Source: a virus. From it: DNA of 64,000 bases. The translations under genes and the position numbers were made by a program. The notes under the pieces were generated by a model. The model saw nothing but the letters and a program-made list of their open reading frames with translations, was not told the origin of the DNA and ran no database searches. Below, one piece after another: positions 9,341-34,838 of the stretch (positions within the stretch are counted from its first letter, which is position 1; each line of letters begins with the position of its first letter). The stretch spans positions 1 to 64,000 of the IMG/VR virus record IMGVR_UViG_3300005518_000003; one strand, written 5' to 3'.

Positions 9341-9945
9341 TTTGGTCCCTGATCGTTGGGCTCAAACTCGGCGTCGATCTCACCTGTCTGCGGAGCTTGC
9401 TTCTCCATGGTCGATCCGAAAACGATCATGCGAAGAAAGTCCTGAAGGACTTCGCCGATAGGCTGCTTCTCAGAGAGAATGCGCTCGATTTTTTCCTTCG
9501 TCTCGAAGCTGAAGACGTGAAAGTTCGATCCGCCTTGCCTCTTTTTGAAGGAAATCTCGACCTCGATCCTGTCGATGTTGTCGGCGAAAACGGCCACACC
9601 TTGGTCGACGACGAAGTTCACCATTTTGGCTGGACCAGCATCGGCCGCGGACTTGATCGCTTCGATGTCGATGAGATCTTTCCAGTTGATCCCGGCGAGT
9701 TTGCCCATTTTTTGGATAAGCGTCGTGTAACCGTACACCGCAAGGAGCACCGGCCATCCAAACGAAACGGTGAGAGCCACCAGCTTTAGGAACTTCGCAG
9801 GTTCCTTCACGCCGTGAAAGGCTGGAATCGCTCCGAGAAACGGCAGCATCGGTGTGATCTTCCAGATGAGGTACGCGTACGCGCCGCACGCGATCGTCAT
9901 GTAGATGAGCGACGAGACGATGATGAAAAGCTGCCAGTGAGCCAT
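9337..9945 (-). CDS. Membrane protein
   Basis: Two or three hydrophobic segments after MAHWQLF; start overlaps the GroES stop. Confidence 0.6.
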   Translation of the reverse strand: MAHWQLFIIVSSLIYMTIACGAYAYLIWKITPMLPFLGAIPAFHGVKEPAKFLKLVALTVSFGWPVLLAVYGYTTLIQKMGKLAGINWKDLIDIEAIKSAADAGPAKMVNFVVDQGVAVFADNIDRIEVEISFKKRQGGSNFHVFSFETKEKIERILSEKQPIGEVLQDFLRMIVFGSTMEKQAPQTGEIDAEFEPNDQGPK

Positions 9946-10535
9946 CAGTCCTCTTCGATCGCGGCGCGAAGCTGATCGTCTGCGACGACGACATGAGCTT
10001 CGCCGCCGATGGTGATCTCTGGCGAGTAGTTGTGGAAGTAGAGGACACGTTGCCCGATAACGACGTCTGGCATCGGCCACCGTTTTCCGCCCTTCTGTCG
10101 CATGCCAGGACCCATAGCCACGATCGTGCCAGAGACAAGGGCCTCTTTTTGCTGGCGCTCCTTTTGGTAGCTCTTCGGGATCACGATGCTGCCCACCTTT
10201 TCCTCGGGGGGATCGGGAAGAAGCAGCACTTTGTTGCCGATCGGTCGAAGCGTACCGTTCTCGAGCACGCCGTGGATGTCGAATTCTTCGAGGAGCAAGA
10301 ACTCGCCCTCCTCGAGCTTCACCACTTTGCCGGCAGAGCGAACGAACATGACGCGATCGTCCGTCTTCACGTCGAGAACGAACTCGGTCCCCACCGAGAC
10401 AACTTCACCTTCGGACGTCGGGATTTGCGCGGAGTCGGGGATGTGGATGAGTCCGATCTTTTTCTGGATCTCGTCGCGCTTGACGAGCACGCAGTCGTGG
10501 AGCGTCCGAAAATTCACCTTTCGTTCTTCGGTCAC
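9945..10535 (-). CDS. groES: Tandem two-domain GroES co-chaperonin
   Basis: Two Cpn10 units: FRTLHDCVLVKR..GLIHIPDSAQ..GEVVSVG..DIHGV and LRPIGNKVLL..GSIVIP..GTIVAMGPG..GQRVLY..DQLRA. Confidence 0.9.
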   Translation of the reverse strand: MTEERKVNFRTLHDCVLVKRDEIQKKIGLIHIPDSAQIPTSEGEVVSVGTEFVLDVKTDDRVMFVRSAGKVVKLEEGEFLLLEEFDIHGVLENGTLRPIGNKVLLLPDPPEEKVGSIVIPKSYQKERQQKEALVSGTIVAMGPGMRQKGGKRWPMPDVVIGQRVLYFHNYSPEITIGGEAHVVVADDQLRAAIEED

Positions 10536-10801
10536 TTTTCTTTCTTCTCCACGAGAACCCATTCCTGTTTCGCTTTGTCCCAGATCCATTCGTACCCGCG
10601 CTTTCTCTTCGTTGGCTTCCGTCCGCGAGGATTTCGCGAACCGGGGTTCTTTTTGTGACCGATCCGCGCCGCTCGCGCAGCCTCTTCGGGTGTGAAACGG
10701 TGAGGTCTCTTCTTCGAGCGAGCCGCAGCCAGACCACCCTGCCGAGCTGTCTCGCGGAGTGTTTCAGCGTCCATTCTGGCAAAACCGGTGCGTTTTCCCA
10801 C
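10532..10801 (-). CDS. KGG-motif (general stress protein-like) small protein
   Basis: GFARMDAETLRETARQGG...HRFTPEEAARAARIG. Confidence 0.75.
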   Translation of the reverse strand: MGKRTGFARMDAETLRETARQGGLAAARSKKRPHRFTPEEAARAARIGHKKNPGSRNPRGRKPTKRKRGYEWIWDKAKQEWVLVEKKEK

Positions 10802-10871: not shown

Positions 10872-11273
10872 ATGGCTCGTCGACATCGCTTCCATCGCAT
10901 TCGTCGCATCGACGTGGAAAAGAAGCGCTTTATGGAGCGCAAAAAAGCTGCCCAACAGCTTCTTCCGTGGAACGTCAACGCCTACTACGGCGGTTTCAAT
11001 CAGGCGTACGATCGCGCTCTTTTCAAAATTGTCGGCCGTTCAAGCGACGGCAGCGGCATGATGTTTGGCGACGGAGAACGAGATCACGGCTGGAGTTTCA
11101 AAACATATAAAGAAGCTCGTGAAGCGGCCAATACGCTCGTCGATTTTCCCGGCATCACACGTGTAGAAATCGTGGGGAACCTCACTGAAGAACGTGAGGT
11201 CGTTCTTATGAGCGGACCGTTCGAACCACGTTACGAACGCCGTCGTCGTCGTCGTCGTCGATCGAAGAAATAG
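10872..11273 (+). CDS. Hypothetical protein with Arg-rich termini
   Basis: 133-aa ORF ending in a poly-Arg (CGT) run just before tRNA-Arg. Confidence 0.65.
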   Translation: MARRHRFHRIRRIDVEKKRFMERKKAAQQLLPWNVNAYYGGFNQAYDRALFKIVGRSSDGSGMMFGDGERDHGWSFKTYKEAREAANTLVDFPGITRVEIVGNLTEEREVVLMSGPFEPRYERRRRRRRRSKK

Positions 11274-11278
11274 CTCTC

Positions 11279-11352
11279 GGGCTCGTAGCTCAATTGGATA
11301 GAGCGCCGCTCTACGGAAGCGGAGGTTGAAGGATCATTCCCTTCCGGGCTCA
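11279..11352 (+). tRNA. tRNA-Arg(ACG) with atypical T-loop
   Basis: Acceptor GGGCTCG/CGGGCTC, D arm GCTC-AATTGGATA-GAGC, anticodon arm CCGCT-CTACGGA-AGCGG, T arm GAAGG-ATCATTC-CCTTC. Confidence 0.85.
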
Positions 11353-11359
11353 CTCTTTT

Positions 11360-11617
11360 TTACGGAATCGGTCCGCCACCCGGCGGAACCGGCGGCGGCA
11401 CGGGAATCGGAACCGTTTTGCCCGTCCACGGCTGCGCGAACGATGCAGGCGGCTGCGGTGTGGGCGGAAGGTTCGTGTTCGGGTTGAGCGCGACGTTCGT
11501 CGGCAGCGAGTCGTTCGGCTCGTGTGGGAACGTCAGCTCCCAAAGCTTCTGCGTCTGCGCGATCGGGTACGGAAACGGTTCACGTTTCGAGAGTGCGATT
11601 GCTCTTTTCCAGCCCAT
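11360..11617 (-). CDS. Small Pro-rich hypothetical protein
   Basis: TATTCT-N6-ATG leaderless-type start. Confidence 0.5.
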   Translation of the reverse strand: MGWKRAIALSKREPFPYPIAQTQKLWELTFPHEPNDSLPTNVALNPNTNLPPTPQPPASFAQPWTGKTVPIPVPPPVPPGGGPIP

Positions 11618-11723
11618 GGGAAGAGAATAGCACGCGACCCCGTGGTACGTTCTATGTGCTTCGCGTGTGCGTTCCTGGGAGTTTCCGGATCGACTTGTCG
11701 GCGCGCACGCGAAGCTTCTCTAG

Positions 11724-11796
11724 AGCTCGGGGCCGGATTCGAACCGACATGGTTCCGCTTACGAAACGGGGGCTCTGCCAATTGAGTTACCCGAGC
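11724..11796 (-). tRNA. tRNA-Thr(CGT)
   Basis: Acceptor GCTCGGG/CCCGAGC, anticodon loop TTCGTAA, T arm GTCGG-TTCGAAT-CCGGC. Confidence 0.85.
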
Positions 11797-11800
11797 GCGG

Positions 11801-11872
11801 AGAGGGCGGTGAGATTCGAACTCACACTGCACGGTTTGGAAGACCGGCCTACGACCGTCGTATTGCGCCCTC
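11801..11872 (-). tRNA. tRNA-Gly(TCC) with atypical D arm
   Basis: Acceptor GAGGGCG/CGCCCTC, loop CTTCCAA, T arm GTGAG-TTCGAAT-CTCAC. Confidence 0.8.
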
Positions 11873-11876
11873 GCGC

Positions 11877-12218
11877 TTAGCTGACGGGCGTCACCCGTGT
11901 GCCACCTGTCGTCCCGGTGGTCAGCCGCTCGGTGTATTTGATTTCGCCTGGTCCCGCGGGTTCTTCGCGAAACCAATCGTTTCCTTCGCGCGCGAAACAG
12001 ATCGGTTCGCTCATTTCCACCTGATCACGGTGGAGAAGACCAATCGGCACGCCTTCTTCGATCAAGTAGGGGACCTCGAGCGTTCGAAACTCGGAGTTGC
12101 CGCGGAGCATGTGACGGAGGTCCATGCCGCCGTACAGCGCAGGCTTCGGACGCAGGAAGGGGAAGATCGCGTACACGATCGCCAAGAGTCCGGCGACGAT
12201 GAAGTTGCGACGTTCCAT
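11877..12218 (-). CDS. Small membrane/Tat-like protein containing a copied segment of the putative major capsid protein
   Basis: MERRNF + hydrophobic helix, then YGGMDLRHMLRGNSEFR..PY.I..G.PIGL shared with 16008..17390. Confidence 0.7.
   Translation of the reverse strand: MERRNFIVAGLLAIVYAIFPFLRPKPALYGGMDLRHMLRGNSEFRTLEVPYLIEEGVPIGLLHRDQVEMSEPICFAREGNDWFREEPAGPGEIKYTERLTTGTTGGTRVTPVS
12096..12134. repeat. 39-bp exact direct repeat, copy 1 (copy 2 at 16437-16475)
   Basis: gttgccgcggagcatgtgacggaggtccatgccgccgta at both sites. Confidence 0.95.
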
Positions 12219-12249
12219 GCAGGAGAGACTACACGATCGCGGCCCAATG

Positions 12250-12696
12250 TCACGCCGCGACGAGCGTGACAAGAGCTTGCCAGATGACCTGGTCTTTCGT
12301 GCCGACGCTGAGAGTGAGAGCACCGCGGGATCCCGGATCCGTTCCTGGAGGGATCATTAGATAGAGCTGCCCGAGCTCTCTTTTTTCCCAAAGCATTGCA
12401 AAGTCACCCGTAAACATTTCGTTATCGCCGATATCATTCCGAGCAACGATCTCGGGAGGGATTTTGATCCACAAAAAGTCCGCTGTCGGTCGAAGGAGAA
12501 ACGCCCCGTTGTCTCCGTCATGAAGAAGAAGCGGTGCATTGAGGTTGACTGACTTCGGCTGCGCTTTGGATGGAAGAAACGCGATTGGAACGCCTTGGGC
12601 CGCTGCTTTTTTCGGCCAGAAGACGATCGCTCCTGCGGCAACTCCCGCCACTCCCGCAGCAGCGAGCCACGCCCACTTTTTTGTTTCGGGTGTCAT
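12250..12696 (-). CDS. N-terminally membrane-anchored virion protein (putative)
   Basis: KKWAWLAAAGVAGVAAGAIVFWPKK TM. Confidence 0.65.
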   Translation of the reverse strand: MTPETKKWAWLAAAGVAGVAAGAIVFWPKKAAAQGVPIAFLPSKAQPKSVNLNAPLLLHDGDNGAFLLRPTADFLWIKIPPEIVARNDIGDNEMFTGDFAMLWEKRELGQLYLMIPPGTDPGSRGALTLSVGTKDQVIWQALVTLVAA

Positions 12697-12700
12697 GACG

Positions 12701-13291
12701 TCACGCGTGCCGGCGTCGACGGTGGCGAGCTCCGCCCTTTTTTGGTTTCGCAAGGACGGCCCACCCGATGATGCCAAGTCCGAGCACCGCCGCGCCGCCG
12801 AGAATCCACGGCGTGTAATCAGACTCCGTGGTCGTCCCGGTCGGTGGAACGGACACGGGAGTGATTCCGCCGCCACCGCCTTGAACAGGACCCGTTCCGT
12901 TGTGTGACTTCGTGTAGCCGACGCCACCGAGGTAGTCGGTCGCGACGTAGCCTTCTTTGCCGGAAAGCTCACCGCTCAAGACTTTGACGTGTGCCCAGTT
13001 GTGGCCACCGGCGTTGTAAACCATTTGCGCGTCCGTATCGACCGTATCGACCGGTTCGACGACGACGTTGTTGTTCGCGCCGTATCTGTTGTTGAAGCGA
13101 CCGATCTCGGCTCCGTTCGCTGTTTGACGAAGCGCCACCTGCGTCCCCGTGATCTCGTACGTGCCGGCAGGAACTTTTTCGCGAAGATTTGGATCCCCGA
13201 GAATGCCGAGACCCTCGTAGACGGACCCGAACCACGCCCCGAGACCAGCGGCGAGTTGAACTTCTTCGTGTTTGACGAGTTGCGTGTCCAT
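12701..13291 (-). CDS. SH3b-like domain protein with C-terminal TM anchor
   Basis: ALRQT...WAHVKV...EGYVATDYL SH3 pattern; TM followed by RHRRRR; GLG leader. Confidence 0.7.
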   Translation of the reverse strand: MDTQLVKHEEVQLAAGLGAWFGSVYEGLGILGDPNLREKVPAGTYEITGTQVALRQTANGAEIGRFNNRYGANNNVVVEPVDTVDTDAQMVYNAGGHNWAHVKVLSGELSGKEGYVATDYLGGVGYTKSHNGTGPVQGGGGGITPVSVPPTGTTTESDYTPWILGGAAVLGLGIIGWAVLAKPKKGGARHRRRRHA

Positions 13292-13301
13292 GTTCTGTCC
13301 T

Positions 13302-14384
13302 TTATGCAGGCGCGAGATGGCGCGGTCGAGATTCCTTGAGGGCCTTCCAAACGAGAAAGCCTCCTCCTCCGATCGTAGCTGCGATGGCAGTGCCGAGCAG
13401 CACCTTGCTTGTGGTGCTCATTCCCTGCGGAGGAGTCATCGGGGTCGGAGACGGAGATGGTTGCGGCTGCGGCTGTTTGATCTGCGTTCCAGCACCCGGT
13501 TCAACATACAACTGCGCGACCCAGCCAGCTCCGTGTGTCTGCGTTCCGACGCGCACGTAATCGATTCCGGCAAAATTCGGATCATTGTTCGGAGCTACGG
13601 TTTCGTCTTGCTTGACCATCCACTTGGGATCGGTCTCGACATCACCGAAGACGTACACATTTTCGCCGTTCTGAAGCGTTGCGATCGCGGTGGACTCGTA
13701 CTCCGGCTTCGCACGAAGAATCACCCCGGTACCTTTGATGTGGTAGTTCCCCGGCGTCGGATGTTCGTCGTATTCCATCCCGAGTCCGCGCTTTGACGGG
13801 CGGTAGTACGGATAGATGCCGACCCGCGCGCCTGGCGACGAAACCGGATTGACGGGACCCATCTGCGAGGCACCGTGTTCCGGCGAGCCAACTGGCCACA
13901 CCGGTCCCATTCGTTCGCTGCTTGGCATGTAGTAGGGATAGATCCCACCAGGGGCTCCAGCCGATGACGGACGAAACGATTCGATGTCTCCGAGCCCAGC
14001 GACACCGTAAAGACCCGTGATGAAACTGGCCGCGACGACGCAAACGAAGTACGCATGCGGCGAAGCTCGCTCACCCCACCATCCACCGCCTACGAATGCT
14101 GCACGCCATCCAGCTTGGAAAGGAAGCTTCGAGAGCGTGGCAACGACGTCGGAAGGAACCGGACCCGCGGGAGGCATCCACGAACACGATGCCGGCTCGA
14201 CGTAAACGTTAGGACCCCAAAACCAGGGCCAATCGAACCACGGCCCGCCACCGCGGAAGCGACGAAATCTACCCCCGTGGGAAACTGTATGATGAAATCC
14301 ACCATGCGGGTGTCCCCCACCGCCCATAGGTGGAGCGCCGAGTCCGATGATCGCACTTACGAGCTCGAGGTCTTGCGCGTTCAT
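13302..14384 (-). CDS. Multi-segment protein with SH3b-like domain and C-terminal TM anchor
   Basis: VILRAKP..IATLQNGENV..YVRV..GWVAQLYV; three GLG motifs; duplicated GIYPYY. Confidence 0.7.
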   Translation of the reverse strand: MNAQDLELVSAIIGLGAPPMGGGGHPHGGFHHTVSHGGRFRRFRGGGPWFDWPWFWGPNVYVEPASCSWMPPAGPVPSDVVATLSKLPFQAGWRAAFVGGGWWGERASPHAYFVCVVAASFITGLYGVAGLGDIESFRPSSAGAPGGIYPYYMPSSERMGPVWPVGSPEHGASQMGPVNPVSSPGARVGIYPYYRPSKRGLGMEYDEHPTPGNYHIKGTGVILRAKPEYESTAIATLQNGENVYVFGDVETDPKWMVKQDETVAPNNDPNFAGIDYVRVGTQTHGAGWVAQLYVEPGAGTQIKQPQPQPSPSPTPMTPPQGMSTTSKVLLGTAIAATIGGGGFLVWKALKESRPRHLAPA

Positions 14385-15927: not shown

Positions 15928-15940
15928 GGGGTCTCTCGAC

Positions 15941-16001
15941 GCCTCAGCCCCTCGGCCTTTCGGCGTCGGGGCTTGGCGTAGCTAGCGCGGCTTTCGCCGC
16001 G
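15941..16001 (-). promoter_or_regulatory. Two GAAA-tetraloop hairpins downstream of the capsid gene
   Basis: CGCGGC-GAAA-GCCGCG and AGCCCC..GCC-GAAA-GGC..GGGGCU. Confidence 0.65.
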
Positions 16002-16007
16002 TCAGCG

Positions 16008-17390
16008 TTAGATGTTGACGAAGCCGCACTCGCACTCCGAGCAGAGTGCATCGCGCGCGTCCGCGTTGTTGCGGAGGAACGTCATGAGGTCGCCGTCGAG
16101 CTCGCGGCCCTTGACGAGCATCGAGAGCTTGAGGTCGCCCATCTTGTAGAAGGCGCGCTCCGCGAAGACCGCCTGCGAGTAGTTGACGATCGCCGCGGGC
16201 GGCACGTCGAGCGATTGCTCGAGCATGACCGGCGAGCCGCTGACCGTTCCGCCGAAGTTGATGTTCGTCGCGTCGACGATGAACGGAGGAATCACGCCGT
16301 TGCCCTGACGGCCCTGCGTGACCGAGAGGTAGTCGCGCATGATGTCGCCCTGGGTGTCGTCGACCTGCTGGAGGACGAGACCGATCGGGATGCCTGCGCC
16401 GATGATGTACGGCAAATCGAGCTTTCGGAACTCGCTGTTGCCGCGGAGCATGTGACGGAGGTCCATGCCGCCGTAGGTGACGGGCGCGAGCTCGAACGCG
16501 CGCGACGGACGGAATTCACCGACCGGTACGCCGCCGACCGTGAGCACGCCCTCGCGGATGAAGTCGATCTTGAGGAAGTCGAACGCCGTTCCGAGCGAGT
16601 CGTAGTAGTCGTTCGTGCGACGAATCTCGGCGAGAACTGCGTCCTCGCTGAGACCCGACGAGCCGTCCTGAGCGTTCGGCGGCATGTACGCCGTGTGACG
16701 GAGGATTTCGTCGAGGATGTTCCACTTCGTGCCGATCGCCCAGCGGAGATCGTACGCGCGCACGAGGTGCCACGCGACGTAGTTGGCCCACGCACCCCAC
16801 TGAAGGATGGCAGGACGCATGAACTGCGTCGGCGTCTGACCGTCGAAATTGTCACCGAGGGCTCCGTTCACGATGTCGGCGACGGTGAAGACATCGGGGC
16901 TCGGCGGCTTCGCTTGGCCGACGACCGGGTGCGTCCACGCGTTGCCGAGAATCGACCACGACTTCGGCTCGGGTTCGAGGTGAAATCCGATCGCGCACGC
17001 GAGCATGTGGGTGTTGAGCTCGCCGTTCTGCGGCATCGTCGATTCGACGAATGCCACACCTTCGACGCTCTTCGAATTTCCGAAGAGATCGATCTCGCTC
17101 GAGAAGTTCTTCTCGATCGCCTGGTCGGTGATCGGGCCGACGAGCGTCCAGCGCGTTTGATGGATCGTGTCCATCGCGTAGGACGCGCAGTCCATCGAGC
17201 TCTTGAGGAGGTTCGTGACGCCAACCGCGCCAAGACCCTTCTTCACGCCGCCTTCGTAAGAGCGGACCTTCTCGATGCTGATCGGCTCGCCAAGGCCGAC
17301 TTTCTTGATCTCGATCTCCCGCTTGATTTGGCGGAACTTCGGGCGGAACGGGTGTTTCGGAGTCGACGGTTTGGCAAGTGCGGTGTCCAT
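16008..17390 (-). CDS. Putative major capsid protein (non-HK97; jelly-roll suspected)
   Basis: Appears to have the strongest C/G third-position bias in the window, AGGAG RBS, flanking RNA hairpins, beta-rich, central in the structural cluster; fold not verifiable by eye. Confidence 0.55.
   Translation of the reverse strand: MDTALAKPSTPKHPFRPKFRQIKREIEIKKVGLGEPISIEKVRSYEGGVKKGLGAVGVTNLLKSSMDCASYAMDTIHQTRWTLVGPITDQAIEKNFSSEIDLFGNSKSVEGVAFVESTMPQNGELNTHMLACAIGFHLEPEPKSWSILGNAWTHPVVGQAKPPSPDVFTVADIVNGALGDNFDGQTPTQFMRPAILQWGAWANYVAWHLVRAYDLRWAIGTKWNILDEILRHTAYMPPNAQDGSSGLSEDAVLAEIRRTNDYYDSLGTAFDFLKIDFIREGVLTVGGVPVGEFRPSRAFELAPVTYGGMDLRHMLRGNSEFRKLDLPYIIGAGIPIGLVLQQVDDTQGDIMRDYLSVTQGRQGNGVIPPFIVDATNINFGGTVSGSPVMLEQSLDVPPAAIVNYSQAVFAERAFYKMGDLKLSMLVKGRELDGDLMTFLRNNADARDALCSECECGFVNI
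16437..16475. repeat. 39-bp exact direct repeat, copy 2
   Basis: Identical to 12096-12134. Confidence 0.95.
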
Positions 17391-17455
17391 GCTGTTCTCC
17401 TCTGCTCTCGTGGTTGCCGCAGCCGGGTCACGAGGTGCAGTTTGGTTTTTTCAAT

Positions 17456-17493
17456 GCCTCAGCCCCTCGGGCTTGCGCCGTTGGGGCTCTGGC
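17456..17493 (-). promoter_or_regulatory. GNRA hairpin upstream of the capsid gene, homologous to 15941-15977
   Basis: 15-bp exact match gcctcagcccctcgg and compensatory stem changes. Confidence 0.7.
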
Positions 17494-17510: not shown

Positions 17511-19247
17511 TTACTCGGCCGCTTCGTCGTTGCGACGGTGTCTCGACGTTCCGGGGAACCGGAGCGAGGAGTTGTCCTCTTCCACCACGAGTCCGAGACC
17601 GCGCGCCGCGCTGTCGAGAACCTGCGGATGGAATTGTCCGAGCGTCGCGAAGCTGCCGCGATGCTTGGCGATGAGCTGATCGGCGTACTTGCGCTGATCC
17701 GGTGTCGCATGTCCTGCCGCATGCGCAGCGAGCACTTCGCGATTCTTTCGAAGCGCGACGTAGGCTTCTCCGTGCGAGCGTAGGACGTCCGTTGCTCCCG
17801 AAACGTCGCCGAGTCCACGGACTCCCACCGGAGCGTACGCGGAAACCGGAGGGCTTTGTGGCGTCGTCGGAACCATGATGCCCGGAGGCATTTGTTCCGG
17901 CGGAACTTGTGGCTGACGCGAAATCGCCGGAGGCGGCACGAATCCGCCTGGCGGGGTGTACGGGCCTTGATTCACGACGGGCGGATATCCTCCGCCCGGT
18001 GGAATCGTCGGATGCGGACCGCCTTGTGGAAGTTGCATTTGCGGCATCACGCTCGGCCCGGTTGAAGGACCGGACGGAATCATGCTGCGACATCCGCAAG
18101 AACCGCCGAGGCCAGGGTACTGACCGCAGGTCGAGCACGGGGCTCCGGCGAGACCGACCGCCGTGCGCTGTCCGATTTCTCCCGAGAAAAGCTTCTTCCC
18201 GGTCGAGTCGGATGCGCTGTCCTTGAAGAGGTACGCCGCGAGATCGTCGACGGCTTTTCCGACGAGACGAACGGCTGCGCCGAATCCGAAGAACTGAAGC
18301 GCGCTGCGCCCCATCGGCGATCGAATGAACTGCGCGACGACGAGCGGTGTTCCGGCCACGGCGACGCCCGCACCAACGCGCGGAAGGAAGTCGTCCATGA
18401 GCGGAGCTTCGATGAAGCGCATCGCGAGCGCTTGACCTTTGTCGTCCTTGCGTTCTCGCATCGTCACGAGACGATCGATCACGTCGGCAGCGGTGTAACC
18501 GATGGCGCCCGTGACGAGGCCGACGACGAGCTCCCAGCCAGTGACCGGGTTCTCCATCGCTCCGCGACGGGAGTGACGACGGCGACGGAGACGCTCACCC
18601 GTGATGTGTCCGACGAGGCGCGTGCGGTAGCGCTTGCCGTGCGACTTGCCTCCGCGGCGACGTGTGAAACGTCCGCGACGGGTGCGACGCACCTGGCGCG
18701 GGAACTCGCGCGCACGCGCGCGACGACGACGACCACCTCGACGGCGACGGCGGCGGCGCGGAGCTTCGGCTGCACGCGCGTAGCGGCGGCGACGGCGGCG
18801 GCGCGGAGCTTCTCGAGAACGACGTGCGCGACCTCGACGACGGCGACGGCGGCGCGGAGCTTCCTCACGCGATTGACGACGACGACGACGACCACCCTTG
18901 CGACGTTTGCGGGCCATGTGCACGGTCTCCTTGGAATGAGAACGGCGTCTCGCCCGCACGCGAGATCGTTTTCTTCGCTTGAGTGAACCGCGACGGCGGC
19001 GCTTCGTCAAGCCCTCTTCTTTCGCATGACGACGGCGACGGCGTTTGCCGGCACGACGCTTTGCAGCTTTCCCGCCGAAACCAGCCTTGATCTGCGCAGG
19101 AGTCAGCCTGCGTCGTTTTCCTCTTCGCGCCATCTTTCTGCCTCGTTTTCGTGGGGTGTCTGCATGAAGGACCACCGCCCGCCTCGAAGCAGCCTGCTCT
19201 GGCTCGGAACGCGCTCGCGAGAGAATCTCTCGATAGTCGACGGGCAT
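17511..19247 (-). CDS. Protamine-like Arg-rich core protein fused to membrane and Pro-rich segments (alternative start 19133)
   Basis: ~190 aa of poly-Arg blocks with EAPRRRRRRR repeats, then ENPV, hydrophobic helices, a CxxC motif, a Pro-rich linker and GLG motifs. Confidence 0.75.
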   Translation of the reverse strand: MPVDYREILSRARSEPEQAASRRAVVLHADTPRKRGRKMARRGKRRRLTPAQIKAGFGGKAAKRRAGKRRRRRHAKEEGLTKRRRRGSLKRRKRSRVRARRRSHSKETVHMARKRRKGGRRRRRQSREEAPRRRRRRRGRARRSREAPRRRRRRRYARAAEAPRRRRRRRGGRRRRARAREFPRQVRRTRRGRFTRRRGGKSHGKRYRTRLVGHITGERLRRRRHSRRGAMENPVTGWELVVGLVTGAIGYTAADVIDRLVTMRERKDDKGQALAMRFIEAPLMDDFLPRVGAGVAVAGTPLVVAQFIRSPMGRSALQFFGFGAAVRLVGKAVDDLAAYLFKDSASDSTGKKLFSGEIGQRTAVGLAGAPCSTCGQYPGLGGSCGCRSMIPSGPSTGPSVMPQMQLPQGGPHPTIPPGGGYPPVVNQGPYTPPGGFVPPPAISRQPQVPPEQMPPGIMVPTTPQSPPVSAYAPVGVRGLGDVSGATDVLRSHGEAYVALRKNREVLAAHAAGHATPDQRKYADQLIAKHRGSFATLGQFHPQVLDSAARGLGLVVEEDNSSLRFPGTSRHRRNDEAAE

Positions 19248-25745: not shown

Positions 25746-26921
25746 TTACGCGACGAGAGGTGTCGCACTCGTGACCGGCGTGATCGCGATCTGCTGAATC
25801 GTTCCCTGAAGGAACTGAAAAAACGCTTCTGCTTGCGCTTGCGTATTTCCAGTAACGGGCGGAAAGAATTCCTCGAACTGAGGTGTGATCGTGAACGTCG
25901 TTCCCGGAAAGTAGCCTTCGCCTTCGGCGATCGTGTCGATGCGACCGAGACCCATCCGTGCATGCGCTGTTGCACCGGTTCCTGGAGCGACGCCCGTGTC
26001 GCGAATGAGAATCGATGGAACGGTGACGTAGTTGTCACCAGGATCGGTGACCGTAATGGCCGTGATGGGAAATCCAGGGCCAGCCCCAACCGTGACGACA
26101 CCTTGCGCAGGAAGACCTTCGGCCATGACGGCGAAGAGTTTCGCAGGACGGCGAGGAGCGATTCCGGTCGTCGTCGTAATGAAGACATCCGGCACCGATT
26201 CGTAGACGCGACCCATATCGACGATCGTGATCGACTGAACGCGACCTCGGGCGTCGAGCTGAAGAATTCCCTGCGCAGGAATCGGTGGCGAATTTCCTTC
26301 CGGACCGCCACCCTGAATGTTGAGGATCGCTGTTGCCGGGTCATATCCCTCGCCTGGATCCGCGATGTTGATGTAGCGAACCGCTCCGCCACGTCCACCC
26401 TTACGCGTGTCGAAGTTGAAGCCCGCAGGCGGAAGGCCTCCAAGCCACGTGATCCTCGTCGTCGAGGCCGTGTATCCGGCCCCTCCGGTGTCGAGCGCAG
26501 TTTCGTACGCAGCCATGTACGCCCTGAAGAGCGCATCACGTTGGGTCGGTCTCCTCGGAACGACGTTTCCGTTCACGATGGGAGCGAGCGGTTCGCGCTG
26601 GTTGTTGTTCGCCCGAATGATCGGCGGAAGAATGAAATCACGACCGCGATTCGCAACGTCCACGGTTACCTGCTGGATGCGACTTGTGTTCGTGATCGTC
26701 GGCGGGTTCAAGAGCGCGGCGACTGAAGGCTCAAAGCCGAGCACGATCGTACGCACGATTGGATTCACGGCAGGGATCGTGATGGAGTCCGAAATGATCC
26801 GCAGGCCGAGCGCCTGAAGAATGTCTGGCGGGATGGGGGCGCTCGCAATGAACGGCTGAATCTTGGTCGAGCTGATCCCGAGCGCCTGGACCGTGTAAAC
26901 GAGCGTGACCTGGGTACCCAT
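25746..26921 (-). CDS. Virion structural protein with I.DPG.GY...P.V beta repeats
   Basis: INIADPGEGY, ITIVDMGRVYESVP, ITVTDPGDNYVTVP, IAEGEGY. Confidence 0.65.
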   Translation of the reverse strand: MGTQVTLVYTVQALGISSTKIQPFIASAPIPPDILQALGLRIISDSITIPAVNPIVRTIVLGFEPSVAALLNPPTITNTSRIQQVTVDVANRGRDFILPPIIRANNNQREPLAPIVNGNVVPRRPTQRDALFRAYMAAYETALDTGGAGYTASTTRITWLGGLPPAGFNFDTRKGGRGGAVRYINIADPGEGYDPATAILNIQGGGPEGNSPPIPAQGILQLDARGRVQSITIVDMGRVYESVPDVFITTTTGIAPRRPAKLFAVMAEGLPAQGVVTVGAGPGFPITAITVTDPGDNYVTVPSILIRDTGVAPGTGATAHARMGLGRIDTIAEGEGYFPGTTFTITPQFEEFFPPVTGNTQAQAEAFFQFLQGTIQQIAITPVTSATPLVA

Positions 26922-32850: not shown

Positions 32851-33060
32851 CTAGTTTTTCGGCTTTCGCTTTTGATCCCAACACGCGAGCGCTTCTTCGA
32901 TTGCTTCGACGAGTGTTCCGCCTTCACCTGGAAACACGCCAAGCTCGGGGTCGTCGGCTGCGTATAGCCACACGACGATGCATGCGTTTTGCGTACTGAA
33001 GATCTGTAAGCTCAGATCGCGCTCGCGCAGAGCTGCTTCGAGCTCTTCGATCGTCTTCAT
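32851..33060 (-). CDS. Small hypothetical protein
   Basis: 4-nt overlap with the ATPase stop. Confidence 0.5.
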   Translation of the reverse strand: MKTIEELEAALRERDLSLQIFSTQNACIVVWLYAADDPELGVFPGEGGTLVEAIEEALACWDQKRKPKN

Positions 33061-34838
33061 GCGTCCTCCGCAAGCATCTCTGCCATCTTCACGCGCTCGC
33101 GAGACGTCTCTTCGGCGAGCTCGCGTCGTGTGAGCCTCTGGATGTACGCATTGCGCGAAGACGTTGCCCAGCGCTCTTCCTCCAGCGCTTCCCCAATCTC
33201 TTCGCGCGTCATGTCCTTTGGATACGCGTCAGCGAGAACGCGAAGACACTTTGCTTCGGGTCCTGGAAGCTTGCGAAGCCAGTGTTCGAGCAGCGCTACG
33301 CCGGTCGGAAGCTCTTCGTAGTCATCGCCAAGCCATTCGACGCCCTCCAGAGTGATGCGGTGGCGATCTCCGACCTCCTCAAAGATGCCGGCATTCCGAC
33401 CGCGCTGGAAATACGCGTTGCGTGTGCTTCCCTTCGCCCCGGTGATTTGTGTGATCTGCGAGCGCGTCACTCCGCTTTCTCCGAACTGCGCGACCGCAGC
33501 CACGAACGACCGCGGAACTTTCACTTCTCCTTCAACCTTCGACGCATCCCCATTCGACTGAGGTCTCGACGCAACCCTCTTCTTTTCTTTTGGTACGACG
33601 ACGATCGCCGGAACAACGATCTTTCCGACAGCGAGATGTTGCATCTGCTGGCGAAGTCGCTTGAGCTCATCGAGCGCTGACTGCGCCATACCCTCGGCTC
33701 GGAGCGTTTTCTCTTTCGCATCTTCGGTTGCTTTGCGCGACGAACCCAAAGCTTCAACCAACGCGTCGACCTGCTTCTCGAGTTTCTTTTCTTGTCGCTT
33801 CGTAAGAACCGGTACCTCGATACGCTTTGGGATACGCGCGGGAGATGGATCGGGTTGAAGCTTCTTGAATTTTCCCGCTGCCTCGAGCTCCTTTTTGAGT
33901 CGCATGACTTCTGCCTTCAATGCTTTCGGATCGTTCGCTTTCGCTTGTTCTACGGTCGCCGCCATCTGCGCAGAGAGCGCACCAAGATCGACGTCAGCAA
34001 GTGTCTTGGGAGGCTTGACCTTCTTCCCATCCGGCGTCCGACTGGAGTCGAACGTCTTTCGTTCACGGAATGAAACGCATTCGAGCATCCCGTTCATGAG
34101 ACCTGGCGCCCAAAACCAACCCGTGCCGCGTTCGAGCGACGAAAGCGTTCCTAGCACTTGCTTTTGCTCTTCTTTGGTCCCGTTGTGTTCGATCCAGTCC
34201 CCGAATGCGTTGATGTCCTGCGGTCCCGTGAGGCGAAACGCGATCAAGATCTCGATTTGTGTGAGCACGTCTTTCGCGATGCGTGCAGGACGCTGCGAAA
34301 TGAGCGTCACACCGATGCCGCGCGTACGACCACGCAGAACGAAATCGTTGATCGCCCCAACGAGCGGAAGCATGTCCGCAGAATCGACGCGCTGCGGGAC
34401 GAAGAGATCGCACTCATCGATGACGATGTGAAGAGGCTCTCGTTGCTTGTTCTTGAGGAGGTAGAGCTTATCGGCGAAGTCGCGAACGAACCGGCGCATC
34501 GCGCTCTTCGAGAAGTCGGAGAGATCGAGCACACACGAGAGACGATTTTCGACGACGTACTCGGCGAGGACGGTACCTCCACGCTCCTCGAGTGGCATAT
34601 CCGCATGGAGACCCCCGAAGATCGGAATCGGATAGCCGCCTTCCTTTTTTCCATTGCTCCCCGCACGAAGCCCCCAGGCTCCGCCTGTCGGATCGATGAC
34701 AATGGTCTGCACCTTTGCGTCGAGTAGCTCCTCGACGAGGAGCATCCCGGTGTGGGTCTTACCCGAACCGCGCTTACCGATGATTCCGATGGTCTCGGTT
34801 GCGATGTTCGGGATCTTGAGCTTGGGGGCGAGACGCAC
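33057..34838 (-). CDS. HerA/FtsK-superfamily ATPase (DUF87-like) with coiled coil and probable wHTH C-terminus
   Basis: GKRGSGKT Walker A, VIDPTG, IVIDECD Walker B, RGRTRGIG, ISQRPA. Confidence 0.9.
   Translation of the reverse strand: MRLAPKLKIPNIATETIGIIGKRGSGKTHTGMLLVEELLDAKVQTIVIDPTGGAWGLRAGSNGKKEGGYPIPIFGGLHADMPLEERGGTVLAEYVVENRLSCVLDLSDFSKSAMRRFVRDFADKLYLLKNKQREPLHIVIDECDLFVPQRVDSADMLPLVGAINDFVLRGRTRGIGVTLISQRPARIAKDVLTQIEILIAFRLTGPQDINAFGDWIEHNGTKEEQKQVLGTLSSLERGTGWFWAPGLMNGMLECVSFRERKTFDSSRTPDGKKVKPPKTLADVDLGALSAQMAATVEQAKANDPKALKAEVMRLKKELEAAGKFKKLQPDPSPARIPKRIEVPVLTKRQEKKLEKQVDALVEALGSSRKATEDAKEKTLRAEGMAQSALDELKRLRQQMQHLAVGKIVVPAIVVVPKEKKRVASRPQSNGDASKVEGEVKVPRSFVAAVAQFGESGVTRSQITQITGAKGSTRNAYFQRGRNAGIFEEVGDRHRITLEGVEWLGDDYEELPTGVALLEHWLRKLPGPEAKCLRVLADAYPKDMTREEIGEALEEERWATSSRNAYIQRLTRRELAEETSRERVKMAEMLAEDA

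Follow-up and report, generated by a model that had tools for sequence, protein, structure and literature searches.

Known capsid sensors recognise short segments of capsid proteins and are activated on binding their epitope, as in the case of Lit, which responds to the Gol peptide of T4 gp23, and CapRel. A free capsid segment could engage such sensors. In Bodo saltans virus, fragments of essential viral genes are found in ankyrin-repeat proteins, for which a decoy role has been proposed (Deeg et al. 2018, PMC5871332). The tail assembly blocker Tab of the Pseudomonas prophage JBD26 blocks the virion assembly of other phages; it acts in lysogens and comes with a dedicated anti-Tab (Patel et al. 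2024, PMC10884400).

Here, we describe small proteins in which a constant leader is followed by pieces of a putative major capsid protein, a design for which we found no published description in the literature. As in Bodo saltans virus, fragments of an essential protein of the virus itself are fused to one constant, amplified module. However, Bodo saltans virus is a eukaryotic giant virus with an ankyrin module and fragments of catalytic domains, whereas the proteins described here have a leader of 26 amino acids and a cargo that always derives from the putative capsid protein. The likeness to Tab lies in the role that would be expected of a capsid-fragment interferer, namely that of an accessory phage protein acting on the assembly of others, but no sequence relationship to Tab was found.

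The analysed stretch of DNA, here called the window, represents the first 64 kb of a complete record of 78,563 bp from an uncultured soil virus. The ends of the record are direct terminal repeats according to the IMG/VR classification, and an end overlap of 90 nt is present.

A family of small proteins with a leader and pieces of a putative capsid protein

The small gene encodes a protein of 113 amino acids, part of which is a copy of a segment of a 460-aa protein encoded elsewhere in the window. The features of the two genes are:

11877-12218, minus strand: small accessory gene of 113 aa with leader, capsid piece and tail (ATG at 12218, TAA at 11877-11879; from the ORF list)
12141-12218, minus strand: leader, aa 1-26, with M-E-RR-N-F-I, a 17-residue hydrophobic helix and P-F-L-R-P-K-P; twin-arginine-type signal or signal-anchor
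12027-12140, minus strand: capsid-derived piece C, aa 27-64, similar to residues 304-341 of the 460-aa protein (capsid-family HMM i-E 8e-20; BLASTP E 1e-17 between the two proteins)
12096-12134, minus strand: tract of 39 nt identical to 16437-16475, read as a gene-conversion patch, with a lineage-private His codon
11967-12008, minus strand: weak remnant of capsid piece A, aa 71-84, similar to capsid residues 141-154 (i-E 0.22, not significant in the window copy)
11880-11924, minus strand: conserved C-terminal tail, ..TGTTGGTRVTP[AV]S, common to members with pieces C and A and members with piece B
16008-17390, minus strand: putative major capsid protein of 460 aa, the source of the copied piece, with 129 metagenome cluster representatives
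16370-16475, minus strand: capsid-gene copy of the 106-nt repeat, residues about 305-340 (repeat finder, codon alignment)

The small gene is the last gene in a co-oriented structural cluster or operon, and its GC content at the three codon positions (0.63/0.45/0.72 in frame) is similar to that of the neighbouring genes. It is the only ORF in the genome with an RR-type leader. The identical protein sequence has been recorded on two contigs from two sources; among the sequencing runs that contain the sequence, no RNA runs are listed. In the AF2 model of the isolated protein, residues 3-18 form a helix (pLDDT 74-83), and both this model and the ESM Atlas model confine order to the leader helix and predict a disordered cargo, as expected of a fragment that needs a partner. 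A complex prediction for the capsid protein and the 113-aa protein scored 0.00, which gives no verdict and counts neither way.

Full-length relatives of the protein with 50-59% identity (P0002-P0006) were identified in a search of 5.8 billion proteins, and with a profile search the number of distinct mini-proteins with the leader rose to 25 (64-142 aa, the one in the window included), all from metagenomes. No members were found in IMG/VR, JGI metagenome contigs, GTDB genomes or GenBank phages. All members have in common the 26-residue leader, which consists of M-[DE]-RR-[ND]-F-[LI], a hydrophobic helix and A-[IL]-F-P-x-L-R-x-[KR]-P. The window protein aligns with its 24 relatives over the entire leader, and the invariant columns R3, R4, F6, A17, I18, P20 and L22 are common to all. 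The cargo is a piece of 40-60 aa from the 460-aa family, with a significant hit to the capsid HMM in 25/25 members. The proteins retrieved with the leader alone as the query likewise all carry capsid pieces. Five regions of the capsid protein are represented, with boundaries given in the numbering of the window capsid:

Piece N, capsid residues 45-103: 5 members
Piece A, capsid residues 108-161: 1 member, and a secondary piece in three C-type members
Piece B, capsid residues 177-243: 10 members
Piece C, capsid residues 296-353: 6 members, including the window copy
Piece D, capsid residues 399-459: 3 members

From these alignments, the 113-aa ORF belongs to an undescribed family in which one constant leader precedes cargoes that together tile five regions of the 460-aa protein. 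In the capsid model, each of the pieces coincides with a beta-hairpin or a beta-alpha-beta unit. The pieces show a mean conservation of 0.43 as compared to 0.38 (permutation p=0.06), which lends weak support to a preference for the most conserved capsid blocks. In P0002-P0004, the position homologous to 11967-12008 matches capsid residues 134-153 with i-E values of 2e-3 to 5e-3, and in diverged members the position of the C-terminal tail resembles capsid residues 226-241. Some members have piece C before piece A, and since these pieces are out of order, such members are not accounted for by a simple deletion within a copy of the capsid gene. Paralogues with different pieces are probably located on one contig in two cases, with C+A, B and N on 6283 nt, and C and B on 2823 nt; this is concluded solely from the matching lengths of their longest contigs. 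BLAST extensions hinted that the leader itself might derive from the capsid protein, but a leader HMM gave real capsids lower scores than shuffled ones, and this origin was rejected. We also rejected the idea that the window copy belongs to a capsid gene that is split or interrupted by an intron, since this gene is intact and its 129 homologs are colinear with it.

Segment C of the window copy and of its C-type relatives has retained each of the residues that are invariant across about 54 capsid segment-C sequences, which are two Gly, Arg, Pro, Gly, Pro and Gly. The positions with Asp, Leu, Arg, Asn, Glu, Phe, Tyr and Ile, which are highly conserved, are kept as well. The small proteins share acidic replacements (E/D) at three sites where the capsids vary, and this signature is absent from the approximately 54 capsids. 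The first-pass annotation had proposed that selection keeps the peptide, and the retention of every capsid-invariant residue of the segment in relatives with an overall identity of 50-59% bears this out. It had also named an unconserved and decaying ORF as the outcome that would speak against the proposal; instead, the intact relatives, the invariant leader and the gene-like codon-position GC indicate a maintained gene. The copy of the capsid piece looks like a maintained, translated and deliberately non-identical mimic.

The repeat shared with the putative capsid gene

Sequence reading and a repeat finder both recovered the exact 39-nt match between 12096-12134 and 16437-16475, which lies in the same frame in the two genes as first described. 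The match is part of a direct repeat of 106 nt with 82% identity (12029-12134 versus 16370-16475), which is in frame in both ORFs on the minus strand. The synonymous differences noted earlier in the adjoining SEFR stretch, with Ser encoded by TCC versus AGC and Phe by TTT versus TTC, are also seen in the codon alignment. The identity is unevenly distributed along the repeat, with 39/39 identical positions followed by 46/63, and since a mismatch-free run of 39 nt is very unlikely at the latter divergence, the identity is heterogeneous. A His residue encoded within the 39-mer is limited, among about 60 segment-C sequences, to the window capsid, its nearest relative L009 and the 113-aa ORF. The His thus belongs to the capsid lineage, as it is also present in L009, which suggests that the capsid gene was the donor in the conversion and the small gene the recipient. 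A recent overwrite by gene conversion from the resident capsid gene is the best reading of the 39-nt identity, which as such does not date the copy; the small-gene family is old and the 39-nt tract recent. Over a window of 50 codons, 6 of the differing codons are synonymous and 22 non-synonymous, a count that cannot separate the two branches, and in the homologous segment alone there are, by our own count, roughly 6 synonymous and 8 non-synonymous differing codons.

A conversion tract that joins the two loci, with 39 exact bases and a lineage-private His codon, and a family that collectively covers five capsid segments would also be compatible with the small gene being a donor cassette for conversion of the capsid gene. 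Such a cassette, comparable to pilS or vls, would serve to diversify or repair the shell protein. The inferred direction of conversion is the opposite, and the E/D signature of the small family occurs at the three positions in none of the approximately 54 capsid segment-C sequences, so that no cassette-derived patch was identified in a capsid gene. Because the signature appears in none of these capsids, a donor role is unlikely. In addition, silent cassettes have no need for an invariant, translated leader, and a direct repeat on both sides of 4.3 kb of structural genes carries a risk of deletion. Altogether, we consider the donor cassette to have a very low probability. The pair of copies was also considered as the template and variable repeat of a DGR, and rejected because the mismatches span all base types, with G/C exchanges the commonest, rather than being confined to adenines. 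The ORFs scanned did not include a reverse transcriptase.

A crossover between the two copies of the 39-nt repeat, which lie on either side of 4.3 kb of structural genes, would remove five neighbouring genes along with part of the capsid gene. Intragenomic repeats of this length may also break k-mer assemblies of such genomes, and a chimeric assembly that arose at the repeat was therefore considered. The Logan contigs (k=31) from two rhizosphere runs match the window sequence at 100% identity, and in both runs they end inside the 39-mer. Contigs of this type cannot bridge the repeat, because contigs with k=31 break at a 39-mer, and the graph also permits a molecule of 74 kb together with a circle of 4.3 kb. 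In the deeper of the Logan runs, contigs of 74 kb and 4.4 kb have the same depth of about 50x, which argues against a chimera. Although the Logan contigs alone do not bridge the repeat, relatives are colinear across both junctions. Five relatives of the small protein span the junction in the small gene, and beyond the repeat the small ORF carries the signature of the small family, which it shares with P0002-P0005. Correspondingly, the nearest capsids span the junction in the capsid gene, and the capsid sequence past the repeat carries their signature. The identical 113-aa protein on two contigs from two sources also speaks against an artefact. The misassembly that had been listed as a possible refutation is thereby excluded by homology, and we regard a chimera as highly improbable.

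The virus and the genomic setting of the small gene

The 460-aa protein has no sequence hit in Pfam, PHROG or PDB, including a profile search of PDB. Its AF2 model is beta-rich with a pLDDT of 88, and Foldseek yielded no meaningful match for it in PDB or BFVD. In an exhaustive search with VIA-align, the best matches were the capsid proteins of HCIV-1 (6h9c, Z 5.3 over 133 residues at 3.5 A) and SPV1 (6oj0, Z 5.0), followed by PRD1 P3 (1hqn/1w8x, Z 4.4-4.2), P23-77 VP16/VP17 (Z 4.4-4.0) and STIV (Z 4.0-4.4); all of these values fall in the range that the program treats as non-decisive. Capsid proteins dominate the list of structural matches, those of viruses with an internal membrane being at the top, with none standing out and all Z values below 6. 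The best matches of the 460-aa protein include vertical jelly-roll capsid proteins (HCIV-1, SPV1, PRD1 P3 and P23-77), to which it aligns with an rmsd of 3.5-7.6 A over 110-175 residues and has no link at the sequence level, so that a jelly-roll fold is a candidate assignment. Judged by these weak fold matches of the model and the genome context, the 460-aa protein is probably the major capsid protein. A 45-nt element brackets the capsid gene (15929-15973 and 17444-17488); its two copies are 80% identical and contain an inverted repeat around AGCCCC...GGGGCT.

A protein of 593 aa (33057-34838, minus strand) contains a HerA/DUF87 Walker region and matches phrog_2666, annotated as terminase large subunit, with an E-value of 5e-17; it is probably the packaging ATPase, of the FtsK/HerA type, of a virus without a tail. 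Among about 60 ORFs scanned there were no hits to portal, tail or HK97 proteins, and no integrase was found among the ORFs scanned. Transmembrane proteins are numerous in the module at 12-29 kb. This context would fit a tailless virus with an internal membrane. Two other genes were noted. The first, at 9945-10589 on the minus strand and 1.3 kb from the small gene, encodes a 214-aa protein with two stretches of the Cpn10/GroES type (Pfam E=1.8e-28; phrog co-chaperonin), and the virus may use the host chaperonin to fold its shell protein. The second, at 17511-19247 on the minus strand, encodes a protein of 578 aa in which Arg5-8 blocks, derived from 45-nt DNA repeats (18723-18863), make up about 190 aa; hydrophobic helices and a Pro-rich region come next, and the product resembles a core or membrane protein of the protamine-like kind.

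A second capsid piece is absent from three related viral genomes, two of which are at least 92% complete and each of which has one capsid gene. Neither the leader nor an extra capsid piece was found at 35 capsid loci from metagenomes, where the flanks covered reach 10 kb at most and many of the contigs are only 2.5-10 kb long. In a close relative represented by a wetland metagenome contig (likeness threshold 80%), positions 11618-12753 are replaced by 464 unrelated bases, so this relative probably lacks the ORF and both of the adjacent tRNA genes. By this distribution, the small gene is accessory and sporadic.

A context that would fit an internal-membrane, tailless virus, with the transmembrane proteins in the 12-29 kb module, the HerA/FtsK-type ATPase and the jelly-roll-like matches, together with the terminal position of the small gene in a co-oriented structural operon, would suit an assembly factor of the virus's own virion. 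In that case, a membrane-anchored capsid strand would dock capsomers on the internal membrane or nucleate the shell. The gene is missing from the three related complete or near-complete genomes, the 35 capsid loci (with the same limit of short contigs) and the corresponding region of the wetland relative, and such a sporadic distribution makes an essential or core role in assembly unlikely. The pieces furthermore stem from five capsid regions, as opposed to one docking interface. We therefore consider an assembly factor quite unlikely, though the least so of the explanations that dispense with mimicry.

The surroundings of the small gene are in part made up of RNA genes and a candidate promoter:

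11723-11872, minus strand: tRNA-Thr(CGU) and tRNA-Gly(UCC), which directly follow the small gene in the same orientation (ARAGORN, Rfam)
12226-12253, minus strand: possible weak promoter, GTGACA, 16 nt, TAGTCT, 7 nt, ATG; identified by eye, below the scan threshold and a lead only

The position of the ORF just upstream of the tRNA genes, as first reported, was recovered, with the stop codon located 4 nt before the 5' end of tRNA-Gly (11799-11872), which is followed by tRNA-Thr. A structured RNA overlapping the ORF was considered and rejected, as Rfam gives the tRNAs only. No tRNA genes were found within 10 kb of the capsid gene in the eight longest related loci scanned. The two tRNA genes and the small gene behave as a replaceable island.

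A promoter-like element of its own had also been attributed to the small gene in the first-pass annotation. This claim did not hold up, as a consensus scan identified no sigma-70-like site in 11000-13500. The arrangement of GTGACA and TAGTCT with a spacing of 16 nt would, if it is a promoter, give a leaderless mRNA. A Shine-Dalgarno motif precedes the capsid gene and several neighbours but is missing ahead of the ATG of the small gene. The octamer GTAGTCTC is located 7-9 nt upstream of the ATG both in the small gene (12219-12235) and in a gene for a 391-aa protein (25746-26921), which also has no Shine-Dalgarno motif, and this octamer may be a -10-like box for leaderless transcripts.

The location in a variable region beside tRNA genes, the sporadic distribution and an ATG that is not preceded by a Shine-Dalgarno motif are what would be expected of a by-product of illegitimate recombination, that is, an open gene fragment that does little or nothing, or a selfish passenger of the tRNA island. 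The family makes a neutral relic unlikely: there are 25 intact members with an invariant leader, the cargo is conserved at an overall identity of 50-59% with all capsid-invariant residues retained, the codon-position GC is gene-like, and paralogues appear to form arrays. Hence, we rate a by-product of this kind as hardly probable.

Possible roles of the leader and its cargo

The RRNF motif and hydrophobic helix that had been described as Tat-like are present, and the leader is invariant across the family. As compared to the twin-arginine consensus [ST]-R-R-x-F-L-K, the window protein has E-R-R-N-F-I, and RR-x-F-[LI] is invariant in the family. The mean Kyte-Doolittle hydropathy of the leader is 1.6-2.6. 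None of ten family members (0/10) matched a Tat profile (PF10518 in Pfam or TIGR01409 in NCBIfam) at E<=10; since the speed filters of such searches can drop short matches, this weakens the claim of Tat membership without excluding it. An AxA cleavage site is missing from the window copy. Several relatives have Ala-rich stretches past the leader, which are possible signal-peptidase sites. The leader shares with Tat signals and uncleaved Tat signal-anchors (PF10518, TIGR01409; Rieske proteins and hydrogenase small subunits) an N-terminal RR-x-F-[LI] followed by a helix, a proline and basic residues, and the small cargo of the window protein is a further point of likeness to Tat. It differs from Tat signals in that its n-region is very short and its helix, which is 17 residues long, is more hydrophobic than typical Tat h-regions. 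Folded proteins are the normal cargo of the Tat system, whereas the cargo of the window protein is predicted to be disordered. The leader may act either as a plain membrane anchor or as an uncleaved signal-anchor of the Tat type.

If the leader mediates true export, the product might be a peptide with a role in the envelope or outside the cell, such as a signal, an envelope modifier or a block to entry, for which the capsid sequence served as mere raw material. The RR-x-F-L motif, the proline and basic residues past the helix and the Ala-rich stretches in several relatives are in line with such a peptide, as are the Tat-signal clusters among the language-model neighbours of the 113-aa protein, which have scores of only 0.82-0.83 and are at the level of a lead. 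The constant capsid origin of the cargo and the retention of its capsid-invariant structural residues are left unexplained by an exported peptide, which we judge to be very unlikely.

We favour the reading that the small protein is a membrane-targeted mimic of unassembled capsid protein, to which we assign a probability of about 0.45. The leader would direct the protein to the inner membrane of the host, either as an uncleaved signal-anchor or by the Tat pathway. The cargo copies a single beta-hairpin unit of the putative major capsid protein (residues 304-341), is predicted to be disordered alone, and would then compete for whatever recognises this capsid segment. The targeting to the membrane or the Tat system, the binding and the nature of the partner are all inferred. 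The partner may tentatively be a host factor that senses or handles capsid protein, such as a defence sensor, a protease or a chaperone. It is somewhat more doubtful that the partner is the capsid protein itself, in which case the mimic would regulate or poison assembly, including that of co-infecting relatives.

Several points weigh against the mimic. The capsid role of the 460-aa protein is based on weak fold matches with Z values of about 5, the virus might impair the assembly of its own particles by mimicking its capsid protein, and true export would take the cargo away from both the capsid protein and cytoplasmic sensors, unless the purpose is to expel a bound partner. Because capsid sensors fire on binding their epitope, a plain titrating decoy is also difficult to envisage, and a decoy would have to be an antagonist.

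In a broader and rather unlikely version of the mimic, a portable leader of the twin-arginine type repeatedly captures pieces of the protein that forms the phage shell, in this case a capsid protein that is not of the HK97 type and probably has a jelly-roll fold, from a tailless membrane virus, giving rise to a general and undescribed class of phage bait proteins. The leader would carry the bait, together with a bound host sensor or a rival capsid protein, to the membrane or out through the Tat channel in a form of hitchhiker expulsion, and capsid-sensing immunity would thereby be disarmed, or co-infecting relatives sabotaged.

If the proteins are functional mimics, they represent a new class of phage accessory genes, in which a constant address label is combined with interchangeable excerpts of the main building block of the virion, and they would point to a hitherto unknown layer of conflict or regulation around unassembled capsid protein. 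The design is present in a lineage with a shell protein that is unrelated to capsids of the HK97 type, and gene conversion would keep the copy in step with the resident capsid gene. Pull-down experiments with the bait could then provide a handle on capsid-recognising factors in uncultured hosts.

A metagenomic protein of 149 aa (P0128) lacks the leader and starts with capsid segment C (about residues 293-336), which is followed by an unrelated domain of about 100 aa. This protein would represent a second mode of re-using capsid piece C.
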